18,683 nucleotides of DNA from a virus (taxonomy: Duplodnaviria > Heunggongvirae > Uroviricota > Caudoviricetes). The notes under the pieces were generated by a model. The model was not told where the DNA came from. It saw nothing but the letters and a program-made list of their open reading frames with translations, and made no database searches. Positions within the stretch are counted from its first letter, which is position 1, and every line of letters starts with the position of its first letter. The stretch is taken from positions 1 through 18,683 of the IMG/VR virus record IMGVR_UViG_2703718816_000002; one strand, written 5' to 3'. The translations under genes were made by a program, and so were the position numbers. Below, piece by piece: positions 3,374 to 7,139 of this stretch.

Positions 3374-3757
3374 TCACCTCGCCGTCAGTTGTTTTGATTT
3401 CCGGTAGCCTGCCGCGTAAATGGCTACGTTTGGAAGACATACACCAGTTTCTGGTTGCTTATGTCCAAACTCATTCGCGTACACAATGGCCGCTCGCTCC
3501 AGATTGCGTCTGTATTCTTTCTGTTGCCAGATCACGTCCTGTGCCATGAACTTAATTGGCTTAGCGTCTTCTATGCGCTCAGGCGTTTCGTGAGTACCTT
3601 TAGCCTGAATCTGCGCTCTGCTTAGAGTAGGGCGGTGTAATACTTCTGAACTTATTGCTTCTTCGCGGGCCAGTACGCCGTTAGCTAATGCCTTTGCCTT
3701 TAAACGCTCACGACGACGAGAACGTGAATTGCCTTTGAACTGAGTTCTGCGTGTCAT
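3374..3757 (-). CDS. N: N-like transcription antiterminator (P22 gp24 / phage-21 type rather than lambda N)
   Basis: The ORF track extends to 3859, but the internal ATG at 3757 has AGGAGG 5 nt upstream and starts with the arginine-rich motif MTRRTQFKGNSRSRRRERLKAKA expected at an N protein N-terminus. C-terminus LPNVAIYAAGYRKSKQLTAR matches the P22 N-analogue C-terminus as I recall it. Sits just downstream of pL and a boxB element. Confidence 0.8.
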   Translation of the reverse strand: MTRRTQFKGNSRSRRRERLKAKALANGVLAREEAISSEVLHRPTLSRAQIQAKGTHETPERIEDAKPIKFMAQDVIWQQKEYRRNLERAAIVYANEFGHKQPETGVCLPNVAIYAAGYRKSKQLTAR

Positions 3758-3885
3758 ATAGACCTCCTGATGAACTTTGGTGGTGAATACAGCCGGGCGA
3801 CTAACTCCGGTCGCGTAATCATTGCAAAGCGCCTCCGCCGAGAAGGTTAGCTTCTGCATTCACCCCAAAGTTCACTTTGGTTATT

Positions 3886-3900
3886 GCGCTTTGTCAGCGC
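3886..3900 (-). promoter_or_regulatory. nutL boxB hairpin (P22-type GCGCUGACAAAGCGC)
   Basis: Minus-strand sequence GCGCTGACAAAGCGC: 4-bp GC stem with a 7-nt loop UGACAAA, in the pL leader upstream of N. The same loop is seen in the nutR-position element at 6743-6757. No convincing boxA (CGCTCTT-like) found near it. Confidence 0.7.
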
Positions 3901-3968
3901 CGTAGATTCATATTCGAATCGTTGTATATTCACCGCCCTGGTGAGTAGTGCGTCCTGCTGATGTGTTT

Positions 3969-4031
3969 AGTATCACCGCCAGTGGTATTTATGTCAACAC
4001 CGCTAGAGATAATTCATCACCGCAGATGGTT
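3969..4031 (-). promoter_or_regulatory. pL promoter with operators OL1, OL2, OL3
   Basis: OL1 TATCACCGCCAGTGGTA (3971-3987), OL2 CAACACCGCTAGAGATA (3995-4011), OL3 CATCACCGCAGATGGTT (4015-4031). On the minus strand, -35 TTGACA (3997-3992) and -10 GATACT (3974-3969) with a 17-bp spacer. Matches the lambda oL/pL arrangement as recalled. Confidence 0.85.
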
Positions 4032-4179
4032 ATCTGTATGTTTTTTATATGAATTTATTTTTTGAATTGGGGTATTGCTTTGGAGGGCGAGAGATCAGAA
4101 TTGCGATGTTTAGTGAGTTGTATCTATTTATTTTCAAATAAATACAATTGGTTATGTGTTTTTAGGTGGGCGAACGTGA

Positions 4180-4210
4180 GGCAAAGAAAACCCGGCGCTG
4201 AGGCCGGGTT
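4180..4210 (-). terminator. Rho-independent terminator closing the cI operon (tImm-like)
   Basis: On the minus strand: AACCCGGC ctcagc GCCGGGTT followed by TTCTTTG. Located 7 nt after the stop of the 206-aa ORF, between that ORF and oL. Confidence 0.65.
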
Positions 4211-4216
4211 AATGCG

Positions 4217-4837
4217 TTAATGCTGGGGAGTGATTTTTTTGTTGTCTGTTGGCTGGGTATTTTGTGGCGGCGCTTGCAAAGTGGAAGGCTGTTGCAAAGG
4301 TGCGTGGTCTGACTTTAAAGCTGATACCAGCCCGGGAATAGCAACTATTACAGCGATAATGACACTAAAAATGGCTAATCGTATAGAAATACCCGACTGA
4401 ACACCACTAATTGCGGTATTAACCCCTGTTATTTGTCCTTGAATTCCTTCGAATCTCCCATTAATTGCTTTTATATCGCCAGCAGCGCTATCCATCTTTC
4501 CATCGATCTTGGACGATAGAGAGCTTATGGCTGCATTAAGTGATGCAAATTGGACATTAACGCTTTCACGAGATAGAGCCATGTCAGCCCTAATGGAAGA
4601 AGCAATAGACTCCATCTCTGCTTTATTAGCAGCTAAGCGAGCATCAAGTTCCTCTCTGCTGATCGTTCCCACTTCTTCCTCCGTTTGTGGCGGTTTTATG
4701 TAATTATTTTGCACCTTGGTGGGAGAATTATCAAATTCAGCCTCAAAATCGGAACCGCCAACAACCTTCAACCTCCGGCTTTCAGATATGTTGGTGTCTT
4801 GCTTTCCATGATTATTTAAATTACTGTCGTCACTCAT
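4217..4837 (-). CDS. hypothetical coiled-coil protein with a single C-terminal transmembrane anchor (206 aa), in the rexB position
   Basis: ORF-track 4217..4837. ATG start overlaps the stop of the upstream 144-aa ORF (ATGA). Low-complexity N-terminus, central Ala/Ser-rich heptad-like segment, then a hydrophobic stretch IRLAIFSVIIAVIVAIPGLVSAL and a Pro/Gln-rich tail. Not RexB-like (RexB is polytopic). Confidence 0.6.
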   Translation of the reverse strand: MSDDSNLNNHGKQDTNISESRRLKVVGGSDFEAEFDNSPTKVQNNYIKPPQTEEEVGTISREELDARLAANKAEMESIASSIRADMALSRESVNVQFASLNAAISSLSSKIDGKMDSAAGDIKAINGRFEGIQGQITGVNTAISGVQSGISIRLAIFSVIIAVIVAIPGLVSALKSDHAPLQQPSTLQAPPQNTQPTDNKKITPQH

Positions 4838-5268
4838 AATAGCTCTACGGTGAAAAATGATTCATTTTTATGAAGTTCATTTTTAGGGTCTTCATTATCT
4901 TGCAATATCCCTATAACACTATATAGCCCTTTAGCTGGGACCCTAATTTCTTTCAATGTTACTATTACCTGTCCGCCAACCCCTGTTTCAAAATGGCTAT
5001 CTTTCGTATCGATGAAAAGTGAAACTGATTCCGAAGAGCCGTCAGGGAATTGAATTTCCTCACCTTTTTTTATAATTAGGTGCGCGGGGATTACCATAAT
5101 ACCCAAATTATATCTTGAATTTGGTTTCAACCCGATCATACCAACCCTGAAATCAATTGATAGCCGCGCAGGAAATTCATTGCATGTAAAATTAAGCGTC
5201 GGTTGGTTGGGTTCTTCGCTGCTATCAAATGGGGTTATAAAAGATATTCTTTCTAAATTAAGTGCCAT
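4834..5268 (-). CDS. hypothetical protein (144 aa), in the rexA position
   Basis: The ORF track gives 4834..5322, but the internal ATG at 5268 has AGGAG 6 nt upstream and yields MALNLERISFITPF... Predicted soluble and beta-rich. Translationally coupled to the 206-aa ORF. No family recognised. Confidence 0.55.
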   Translation of the reverse strand: MALNLERISFITPFDSSEEPNQPTLNFTCNEFPARLSIDFRVGMIGLKPNSRYNLGIMVIPAHLIIKKGEEIQFPDGSSESVSLFIDTKDSHFETGVGGQVIVTLKEIRVPAKGLYSVIGILQDNEDPKNELHKNESFFTVELL

Positions 5269-5318
5269 AAATTCTCCTGCATCGCTGTATGCTCTACGAG
5301 CATCTCTGCGACCATCCA

Positions 5319-5680: not shown

Positions 5681-5689
5681 CTATCCTCC

Positions 5690-6403
5690 TCACCCAAACG
5701 TCTCTTCAGGCCATTGACTGGCGATAACTTTCCCCACAACGGAACAACTCTCATTGCATGGGATCATTGGGTATTGTGGGTTTAGTGGCTGTAAAAACAC
5801 CTGACCGCTATCCCTGATCAGTTTCTTGAAGGTAAACTCATCACCCCCAAGTCTGGCTATGCAGAAATCACCTGGCTCAACAGCCTGCTCAGGGTCAACA
5901 AGAATTAACATCCCGTCAGGAAAACTGGGTTTGGAACCTGTTGGTGCGGTCATTGAGTTACCTTCAACCTCAAGCCAAAATGCAGAATCACTGGCTTTTT
6001 TGGTTGTGCTTACCCATCTCTCCGCATCACCTTTGGTAAAGGTTCTAAGCTCAGGCGAGAACATCCCGGCCTGAACATGAGAAAAAACAGGGTACTCATA
6101 CTCACTTCTAAGTGACGGCTGCATACTAACCGCTTCATACATCTCGTAGATTTCTCTGGCGATTGAAGGGCTAAATTCTTCAACGCTAACGTTGAGAATT
6201 TTTGCAAGCAATGCTGCGTTATAAGCATTTAATGCATTGATGCCATTAAATAAAGCACCAACACCTGACTGCCCCATCCCCATCTTGTCTGCGACAGATT
6301 CTTGGGATAAGCCAAGCTCATTTTTCTTTTTTTCATAAATAGCTTTAAGGCGACGTGCGTCCTCAAGCTGCTCTTGTGTTAACGGTTTCTTTTTTGCGCT
6401 CAT
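5690..6403 (-). CDS. cI: CI repressor, lambda type (HTH plus LexA-like S24 autocleavage domain)
   Basis: 237 aa. [54 protein letters not shown]... to ...QWPEETFG is essentially the lambda cI sequence as I recall it. The ATG at 6403 lies at the edge of OR3, consistent with a leaderless pRM transcript. Confidence 0.97.
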
Positions 6404-6413
6404 GCATTAAATC

Positions 6414-6479
6414 TATCACCGCAAGGGATAAATATCTAACACCGTGCGTGTTGACTATTATACCTCTAGCGGTGATAAT
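6414..6479. promoter_or_regulatory. oR operator region (OR3, OR2, OR1) with divergent pRM and pR
   Basis: OR3 TATCACCGCAAGGGATA (6414-6430), OR2 TAACACCGTGCGTGTTG (6437-6453), OR1 TACCTCTAGCGGTGATA (6461-6477). pR -35 TTGACT (6451-6456) and -10 GATAAT (6474-6479). Cro RBS AAGGAGG at 6493-6499. Confidence 0.9.
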
Positions 6480-6503
6480 GATTGCCTGTACTAAGGAGGT
6501 TGT

Positions 6504-6704
6504 ATGGAACAACGCATAACCCTGAAAGATTATGCAATACGCTTTGGGCAAACCAAGACGGCTAAAGATCTCGGCGTATATCAAAGCGCGATTAACAAGG
6601 CCATTCATGCAGGCCGAAAGATTTTTTTAACTATAAACGCTGATGGAAGCGTTTATGCGGAAGAAATAAAGCCCTTCCCAAGTAACAAAAAAACAACTGC
6701 ATAA
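6504..6704 (+). CDS. cro: Cro repressor, lambda type
   Basis: 66 aa, [66 protein letters not shown], near-identical to lambda Cro as recalled. Strong RBS, directly downstream of pR. Confidence 0.95.
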
Positions 6705-6711
6705 GTAACAC

Positions 6712-6757
6712 CGCTCTTTTCACAATGGACATTCGTCCTACGTCGCTGACAAAGCGA
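6712..6757 (+). promoter_or_regulatory. nutR-like site: boxA (CGCTCTTTT) and boxB (TCGCTGACAAAGCGA)
   Basis: boxA-like CGCTCTTTT at 6712-6720, 8 nt after the cro stop. A hairpin at 6743-6757 carries the same UGACAAA loop as the nutL boxB. The loop is the P22 type, not the lambda type (GCCCUGAAAAAGGGC). Confidence 0.65.
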
Positions 6758-6842
6758 GTCCCAATATATCTGACCAACTAAGGCCATATGCGTTTCCACG
6801 CATACCTTTCAACTAGCTATTCACTATTGGAAATCTTAAGAA

Positions 6843-7139
6843 ATGGAACAAACAAGTTACAGCAAACTATCACAGCGAGAAATTGATCGCGCTGAAACTG
6901 ATTTACTCATCAACCTGTCAACGCTTACCCAGCGCGGTCTGGCAAAGATGATTGGCTGTCATGAATCGAAGATAAGCAGAACGGACTGGAGATTTATTGC
7001 TTCGGTCTTGTGTGCTTTCGGAATGGCATCAGACATCAGTCCGATTAGTAGGGCTTTTAAGTATGCGCTTGATGGAATCACAAAGAAAAAATCCCCGGTG
7101 GCCGCCGGGGACTCTAAGCAAATTGATATGCAATTCTGA
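6843..7139 (+). CDS. cII: CII-like transcriptional activator (diverged from lambda CII)
   Basis: 98 aa in the cII position between nutR and O. HTH-like RGLAKMIGCHESKISRTDW and C-terminus KQIDMQF parallel lambda CII (SQISRWKRDW and EQIQMEF, recalled), but the rest differs. Weak RBS. Confidence 0.6.
   Translation: MEQTSYSKLSQREIDRAETDLLINLSTLTQRGLAKMIGCHESKISRTDWRFIASVLCAFGMASDISPISRAFKYALDGITKKKSPVAAGDSKQIDMQF

Follow-up and report, generated by a model that had tools for sequence, protein, structure and literature searches.

How does a lambdoid prophage come to carry the repressor, the operators and the Cro protein of lambda next to an antitermination gene and a cII that belong to another type of phage, and where exactly do these parts meet? 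The question is raised by the early control region (3374-7139) of a caudoviral sequence, IMG/VR record IMGVR_UViG_2703718816_000002, which was analysed over its full length of 18,683 nucleotides, called the window below. A previous sequence-only reading, made from the letters and their open reading frames, saw there a mosaic of lambda operators, cI and cro with a P22-type N gene, P22-type boxB sites and a cII unlike that of lambda. We can understand the region somewhat differently, as the region of early control in a lambdoid prophage that looks intact, where a lambda immunity cassette (approximately 3947-6697) is set within an early region of the H-19B/933W type, and we would give this interpretation a probability of about 93%. 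The cassette is made of pL/oL, a repressor-linked accessory slot, cI, oR and cro; it is flanked on the left by N, the N leader and nutL, and on the right by nutR, tR1/pRE, cII, O and P.

Escherichia coli OkiPb01712 and its sister strain OkiPb01678, both isolated from bovine faeces in Okinawa, carry in their chromosomes a prophage with 100% identity to the window. The RefSeq annotation places an integrase and an excisionase upstream of the early region, followed by early genes for RecT, kil, N, a LexA-family repressor, Cro, CII, O, P and ren in a complete-looking lambdoid layout and, after ren, by NinB, a methylase, two antirepressors, RusA, Q, three tRNAs and lysis genes. Alignments with lambda, HK97, 933W, HK244 and P22 were made for the leftward control region (positions 4220 down to 3300 on the minus strand) and for its rightward counterpart (6380-7180), and the identities given below for segments were calculated from them; several element positions were carried over from the record of phage mEp234 (EF120460) by a fixed coordinate offset. 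Phage 21 has no record among the matches listed in three phage searches, and its N/nut region was left out of the comparison.

The first part of the answer lies in the elements of the genetic switch, which are the following.

3965-4040: pL/oL segment, 95% identical to lambda (72/76) and 39% to 933W
3969-3997, minus strand: promoter pL, TTGACA, 17-nt spacer, GATACT (10/12 in a consensus scan; aligned with lambda pL; present in EF120460)
3971-3987, 3995-4011 and 4015-4031: operators oL1, oL2 and oL3, from the operator pattern and the lambda alignment
4189-4210, minus strand: Timm-like terminator closing the cI operon, from a terminator scan; kept in lambda, HK97 and HK244
5690-6403, minus strand: cI repressor gene of the lambda immunity type, 235/237 residues shared with lambda cI and 237/237 with HK97 cI
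6380-6503: 5' end of cI and oR, 94% identical to lambda and 32% to 933W
about 6410-6438, minus strand: promoter pRM, from promoter scan, lambda alignment and EF120460 offsets
6414-6430, 6437-6453 and 6461-6477: operators oR3, oR2 and oR1, from the operator pattern and the lambda alignment
6451-6479, plus strand: promoter pR, identified as pRM was
6504-6704, plus strand: cro, lambda type, 64/66 residues shared with lambda Cro (188/194 nt)
6504-6697: cro segment, 97% identical to lambda and 43% to 933W

These counts bear out the claim that oL, oR, cI and cro are all of the lambda type. The repressor departs from lambda cI at two residues only (T3A and K71N), while oR3, oR2 and oL1 have exactly the lambda sequence. 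A single central G to A change distinguishes oR1 (at 6468) and oL2 (at 4003) from their lambda counterparts, that in oR1 being common to HK97 and HK244; oL3 carries a T to C change at operator position 1 (4015), which is absent from lambda, HK97 and HK244. The transcript from pL would start at about 3962, and Timm is an annotated feature of both EF120457 and EF120460. The region thus displays the sequence traits of the imm-lambda group: the lambda cI sequence, six operators with at most one change each, the promoters pL and pR, and a lambda-type Cro.

The CI/Cro switch of lambda is established in the literature for parts that are near-identical to these. In the lysogen, the lambda-type CI would occupy oL1-3 and oR1-3, keeping pL and pR off while autoregulating pRM. 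Because the repressor protein and the operators are nearly those of lambda, the lysogen should be immune to lambda and to phages of lambda immunity such as HK97, immunity to superinfection by lambda being the phenotype that defines the imm-lambda group. A literature search gave no usable explicit statement that HK97 has lambda immunity, and its likeness rests on the alignments made here.

The second part of the answer lies on both sides of this switch, in the gene and the RNA sites of antitermination.

3374-3757, minus strand: antitermination gene N, 127 residues, H-19B/933W type, ATG at 3757; DNA 38% identical to lambda, 100% to 933W, 45% to P22
3767-3875, minus strand: long hairpin of the N leader, H-19B (short) allele, between nutL and the N ribosome-binding site
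3886-3946: nutL, 46% identical to lambda, 100% to 933W
3886-3900, minus strand: nutL boxB GCGCUGACAAAGCGC, 5-bp stem, GACAA loop, -7.1 kcal/mol
3905-3920, minus strand: nutL interbox hairpin GAUUC-GAAUAU-GAAUC, in minimum free energy and centroid folds; kept in H-19B, 933W and HK97
3944-3952, minus strand: putative nutL boxA CGCACUACU, a weak consensus match transferred from EF120460
6698-6760: nutR, 52% identical to lambda, 98% to 933W
6712-6720, plus strand: nutR boxA CGCUCUUUU, matching the EF120460 feature
6727-6738, plus strand: nutR interbox hairpin GGAC-AUUC-GUCC, a predicted fold conserved in H-19B, 933W and HK97
6743-6757, plus strand: nutR boxB UCGCUGACAAAGCGA, folded, matching the EF120460 feature

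The N protein is that of 933W without a single difference (127/127 residues, 384/384 nucleotides) and differs from HK97 N at two positions (125/127). It carries an arginine-rich motif, RSRRRER, at residues 12-18, and is recognized by the Pfam family N_peptide (PF25694; E=2e-15, 57.5 bits for a cut-off of 27.9). When lambda N is aligned with it, the arginine-rich motif alone can be matched, and weakly. The same motif, 12-RSRRRER-18, together with a C-terminal RNA-polymerase-binding domain (residues 101-127), has been described for the N protein of H-19B (PMC3526286), an antiterminator widely used in experiments, which is active with the H-19B nutR site in vivo and in vitro, both in reporter and in purified systems (PMC3526286, PMC4499122).

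Between nutL and N the leader separates the window from 933W: leader and nutL have exactly the H-19B sequence, while the leader interior of 933W, HK97 and PhiR5_2 is different and longer (L006:4439-4706 in 933W). The complementary flanks (GUGAACUUUGGGGUG ... CACCACCAAAGUUCAU) are kept in both alleles, where they form the base of a long hairpin; the fold of the window's leader has a z-score of -3.25, and the same base stem is predicted in the 933W allele. By its position this structure is reminiscent of a hairpin in the leader of lambda N that is sensitive to RNase III. The RefSeq model of N (WP_445297911.1) is 486 nt long (3374-3859, minus strand), with its ATG directly beside boxB. As the N genes of H-19B, 933W and HK97 have 384 nt and the Pfam match covers the 127-residue form, this model looks 34 codons too long, and appears to extend across the N leader. 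Directly downstream of N lies an open reading frame of 156 residues (2845-3315, minus strand; phrog_1636, no Pfam match), which is conserved in HK97 (gp45) and 933W, where it holds the same place.

Exactly two copies of the boxB core CGCTGACAAAGCG are found in the 18.7-kb window, one on the minus strand (3887-3899) and one on the plus strand (6744-6756), for a chance expectation of 0.04, and two or more matches were seen in 0/200 shuffles. In each case the core lies on the strand that is read from pL or pR, the first downstream of pL, the second downstream of cro. The hairpins had been noticed at precisely 3886-3900 and 6743-6757, with a loop read as UGACAAA. Their positions are exact; each folds into a GACAA pentaloop on a stem of 5 bp, the longer loop having counted in the closing U-A pair. 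The two boxB sites have the same loop and differ by their terminal base pair alone. That of nutL is identical in H-19B, 933W, HK97, PhiR5_2 and P22 nutL; nutR as a whole (6698-6760) is identical to 933W, and likewise to HK97, at 62 of 63 positions. What separates it from H-19B and 933W is one base of boxA, which reads CGCTCTTTT in the window, HK97 and PhiR5_2, and CGCTATTTT in H-19B and 933W.

Both nut sites have a long spacer between boxA and boxB with a small extra hairpin; no such interbox hairpin appears in the folded nut regions of lambda and P22, where the spacers are short. Neely and Friedman are reported to have found, in 2000, that such an interbox hairpin distinguishes the nut sites of H-19B, which reportedly make use of it and need fewer Nus factors. 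A 127-residue N with RSRRRER, a GACAA boxB on both arms and a long hairpin-bearing spacer are found together, as in the module of H-19B, 933W and HK97. Neither N nor the nut hairpins could be taken as identical to those of lambda, and the hairpins are kept in H-19B, 933W and HK97, as the sequence-only reading required.

That reading had nevertheless assigned the module to P22, and it is worth asking whether N and boxB could have been acquired from a P22-like phage, bringing the N/nut specificity of P22 with them. The resemblance is real at the RNA: the 15-mer of nutL boxB is the same in P22 nutL and in the RNA bound by the P22 N peptide in their solved structure (PDB 1A4T; PMC11480772). It is also real in the protein, since the arginine-rich motifs align (FKGNSRSRRRERLKAKA for P22 FAGNAKTRRHERRRKLA) and the last 30 residues are 67% identical to those of P22 gp24, which makes the C-terminus gp24-like, as was claimed. 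In the P22 peptide a lysine and an isoleucine contact the bases of the boxB loop (PMC11480772), and in the N protein of the window these are replaced conservatively by arginine and leucine. However, BLASTP aligns gp24 over the last 30 residues alone (residues 99-127), multiple alignment adds the arginine-rich motif and leaves the middle of the protein unrelated, and neither method shows homology over the full length of gp24. The DNA of the gene is only 45% identical to P22 but 100% identical to 933W; the boxB of P22 nutR (CCGCCGACAACGCGG) has different stem sequences; the interbox hairpin present in both nut sites of the window contrasts with the short spacers of P22 and lambda; and no P22 record appears among the near-identity matches. 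An origin from P22 is thus very improbable. It is plausible, in contrast, that this N works like the P22 N/boxB pair at the RNA-recognition step, and P22 gp24 could show functional cross-talk with nut sites of the H-19B type through the shared boxB, a point of modest interest. A literature search provided nothing usable comparing H-19B N with P22 N, so that this comparison rests on our alignments.

With N and both nut sites of one type, the antitermination specificity would be H-19B/933W-like and not lambda-like. The prediction that the specificity of the prophage could be read from this region stands insofar as N is matched to both nut sites; the type is that of H-19B, 933W and HK97, not that of P22. 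After induction or infection, the transcripts from pL and pR would carry nutL and nutR; an N of the H-19B type would bind the GACAA boxB hairpins through its arginine-rich motif and, with NusA and other host factors, would render RNA polymerase resistant to downstream terminators. From the identity with H-19B we infer that N acts at these nut sites in the prophage, delayed-early expression relying on its own N at its own nut sites and not on lambda N.

On the right-hand side the same allegiance goes on through the lysogenization activator and into the replication genes.

6761-6842: tR1/pRE, 49% identical to lambda, 100% to 933W (82/82)
6833-6865, minus strand: pRE with the CII-binding repeat TTGC-N6-TTGT, overlapping the start of cII; EF120460 position
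6843-7139, plus strand: cII, 933W/H-19B/HK97 allele, 97/98 residues shared with 933W cII, 33% identity to lambda cII; DNA 46% identical to lambda, 97% to 933W
7088-7197, minus strand: OOP-like antisense unit with its promoter (7169-7197) and a terminator (7088-7115) that overlaps the cII 3' end
7172-8071, plus strand: O, 296/299 residues as in lambda
8068-8769, plus strand: P, 226/233 residues as in lambda
8766-9056, plus strand: ren, 85/96 residues as in lambda

The strong divergence of cII from lambda, noted before, is thus correct, and the protein is a clear member of the family Phage_CII (PF05269; E=4e-32). Its target repeat, TTGCTGTAACTTGT, lies at 6852-6865 on the minus strand and overlaps the start of the gene as it does in lambda. 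Since the repeat sits within the same exchanged block as cII, activator and promoter stay matched, and a CII of the 933W type would activate pRE through the repeat TTGC-N6-TTGT. The OOP-like unit was found by a scan for promoter and terminator, and its position matches that of the oop features annotated in P22.

O, P and ren had been described as lambda-type, and their proteins are indeed close to those of lambda, but the O, P and ren of 933W are lambda-type too. O and P form no separate lambda block: of the 75 aligned positions that distinguish lambda from 933W and at which the window agrees with either, they side with 933W at 67 and with lambda at 8. The 41 nucleotides between cII and O are all identical to 933W (41/41), with no junction at the cII/O border. 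The origin iterons within O number four, as in lambda, 933W having six. A stretch covering the 3' end of P and the first half of ren (8703-8912) holds 22 private single-nucleotide differences, shared with neither of the two phages, an indication that ren came from a third donor. From the sequence, the replication module is lambda-type and belongs to the 933W sub-lineage.

It follows from the behaviour of O and P that two junctions are enough to build the whole arrangement.

3947-3964: left junction, 18 bp on which lambda, H-19B and the window agree throughout, covering pL +1 to +16 plus 2 nt upstream
6697-6698: right junction, within the last codons of cro (stop at 6702-6704)

On the left, the block is shared at 18/18 positions with lambda and HK97, and is 83% identical to 933W. 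The first base unlike lambda is 3946, that is, +17 of the pL transcript, in line with the divergence of the pL leader that had been placed near 3940; H-19B parts from the window upstream of 3964. On the right, the first base unlike lambda is 6698 and identity with H-19B/933W begins at 6697, BLAST ranges overlapping at 6697-6718, so that lambda and H-19B have practically no homology in common there. The borders of the cassette thus fall where the pL transcript begins and in the last codons of cro, and the proposal of a modular mosaic with junctions at functional borders is upheld: such borders separate the specificity of repression from that of antitermination. In the classical imm434 substitution, repressor specificity was swapped while N and the nut sites were left in place, and the borders seen here resemble those of that substitution.

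Could these joints be an artefact, in which the assembly fused reads from two prophages within one genome? Several lambdoid prophages are present in the strain, and the window matches nine places in the record, which would provide the material for such an accident. Yet identical joints are present in independently sequenced phages and in more than 100 complete genomes, and in HK97 and PhiR5_2 the junctions sit at identical bases; a chimera of this kind was rejected, its probability being negligible. Using fragments that span the joints (3860-4040 and 6600-6800), matches of 97-99.5% identity over 99-100% of the length were found in HK97, mEp234, HK106 and PhiR5_2, each of the two fragment searches returning 10 GenBank records.

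Several observations weigh against the interpretation given here. Homology at the right junction being essentially nil, the exchange may have involved other donors than lambda and H-19B proper. In nutL, boxA fits its consensus poorly. The base changes in oL3 (T to C) and at the centre of oL2 and oR1 (G to A) mean that operator affinities could differ slightly from those of lambda. Finally, immunity, N activity and cII activity are all read from sequence identity.

In the same vein, the region might be a relic in a decayed or cryptic prophage, where the switch and the N/nut system no longer cooperate. The window does come from a chromosome and not from a phage isolate, an Ea22-like pseudogene lies upstream of it, and the base change in oL3 is private. 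Against this, every gene of 3374-9056 has its full length and is 97-100% identical to its counterpart in the plaque-forming phages 933W, HK97, HK244 and lambda; isolated phages (HK97, mEp234, HK106 and PhiR5_2) have the same control module; and genes for integrase, excisionase, Q, holin and lysozyme are annotated around the region. We therefore hold decay to be very unlikely, and retain the lambda immunity cassette within an H-19B/933W-type early region as the most satisfactory description of the locus.

One part of the cassette lies within the region covered by the sequence-only reading but was left unmentioned there. rexA and rexB are absent, and three other genes occupy the interval between cI and the Timm-like terminator (4217-5680, minus strand).

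5339-5680, minus strand: rex-slot gene 1, DUF3024 protein, 113 residues, sharing 111/113 with the protein encoded after cI in 933W
4834-5268, minus strand: rex-slot gene 2, predicted beta-sandwich protein, 144 residues, 144/144 identical to HK244 HK24405
4217-4837, minus strand: rex-slot gene 3, 206 residues, 204/206 identical to HK244 HK24404; phrog_5820

The first protein matches Pfam DUF3024 (E=2e-31) and the PADLOC candidate PDC-S43 (E=7e-42). For the 206- and 144-residue proteins, searches in Pfam, NCBIfam, PADLOC and PDB sequences gave sub-threshold matches only; the modelled fold of the 144-residue protein matched generic Ig/FN3/CBM beta-sandwiches only. The 206-residue protein has a long helix and a C-terminal transmembrane helix, its model, of a quality too low for fold comparison (predicted local distance difference test score, pLDDT, of 58), showing helices at 61-139 and 149-175. 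Both belong to small families confined to the Enterobacterales. In Rac-like prophages of Citrobacter the pair is again found immediately downstream of a repressor, in the same orientation, although this repressor is of an unrelated CI/RacR type, which suggests a mobile two-gene unit expressed in the lysogen. Judging from the gene order, the pRM transcript should carry all three rex-slot genes, together with cI, up to the Timm terminator. We may tentatively imagine that the DUF3024 protein, the beta-sandwich protein and the tail-anchored coiled-coil membrane protein make up a cassette for exclusion or defence, linked to the repressor and transcribed from pRM in the lysogen, without regarding this as the probable outcome. 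These three genes are the only uncharacterised content of the region.

Away from the control region, two further features of the window deserve to be recorded. At 10698-10899 (plus strand), Rfam matches to c4-a1b1 targets, isrK and a C4 antisense RNA lie immediately upstream of the Ant gene (10934-11656), a unit corresponding to the antisense control of an antirepressor in the style of P1 and P7. At 15981-16610, three tRNAs (annotated as Ile, Arg and Arg) are followed by the sRNAs STnc100 (16342-16550) and AgvB (16551-16610, minus strand). This is the neighbourhood found upstream of stx in Shiga toxin (Stx) phages; here a DUF6645 gene comes next, and no toxin gene follows.

How new is such an arrangement? 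The combination of lambda immunity with N/nut and cII of the H-19B type has been in GenBank since HK97, and it is annotated feature by feature for mEp234 and HK106. The record of mEp234, EF120460, lists first N (384 nt), boxB and boxA of nutL, pL, oL1-3, Timm and an accessory slot, and then cI, pRM, oR3-1, pR, cro, boxA and boxB of nutR, pRE, the CII site and cII (297 nt), with feature coordinates that coincide with those of the window after a fixed offset. It belongs to a GenBank set of immunity regions from phages with cI, cro and operators of the lambda type. This set is attributed to Degnan et al. 2007. The novelty implied by the sequence-only reading therefore does not hold, the same joints being present in HK97, mEp234, HK106 and PhiR5_2. 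We consider the control region to be a real, well-formed and functionally coherent lambdoid mosaic, already known and ordinary, because the same arrangement had been sequenced and annotated in HK97, mEp234 and HK106.

Its distribution among bacterial genomes tells the same story. Among 5,426 complete E. coli genomes, the cro/nutR joint is found in 118, which include O104:H4 outbreak isolates such as C227-11, and the pL/nutL joint in 111. The lambda cassette in an H-19B-type setting is thus present in about 2% of complete genomes, and is small as a discovery. Five complete E. coli genomes, from bovine, crow and human sources, contain the full 3.9-kb module with its rex-slot genes at 98-100% coverage; in one of these, RM10410, it lies inside an Stx1a prophage, an example of immunity cassettes moving among Stx-type phages. 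What is gained is mostly annotation: the prophage is predicted to be homoimmune with lambda and HK97 and to have the antitermination specificity of Stx phages, the recombination joints are placed to the base, and the excessive length of the RefSeq N model is exposed.

The place of the window among known systems can now be summarized. Its closest relatives are HK97 (NC_002167), mEp234 (EF120460), HK106 (EF120461) and PhiR5_2 (PV340546), which all have the same succession of N (127 residues), nutL, pL/oL1-3, Timm, accessory slot, cI, oR3-1, cro, nutR, pRE and cII. They differ from it in the content of the slot, occupied by gp48/gp49 in HK97, by hicAB and one further open reading frame in mEp234 and HK106 and by a single one in PhiR5_2, whereas the window has the DUF3024 gene and the HK244-type pair. 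HK97 and PhiR5_2 have the long allele of the N leader, the window that of H-19B. Replication also sets them apart: HK97 uses a P22-like O and a DnaB-type helicase, PhiR5_2 an O and a DnaC, and the window the O, P and ren of the lambda/933W type.

With 933W and H-19B the window shares N, leader and nutL, nutR, tR1/pRE, cII, the pattern of single-nucleotide differences in O and P, and the DUF3024 gene after cI; its immunity region, in contrast, is that of lambda, with 32-43% identity to 933W over the 5' end of cI and oR, cro and pL/oL, and no stk kinase gene follows its cI. From lambda it is distinguished by N, nutL, nutR and cII of another type, at 38-52% nucleotide identity. HK244 and HK542 (EF120457/8) have the same two rex-slot genes along with operators, cI and cro of the lambda type, but HK244 has kept the lambda-type N, nutL and nutR, carries a P22-like cII and is devoid of the DUF3024 gene. 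P22 itself remains distant, at 45-49% DNA identity, with another stem in its nutR boxB and another spacer between boxA and boxB.

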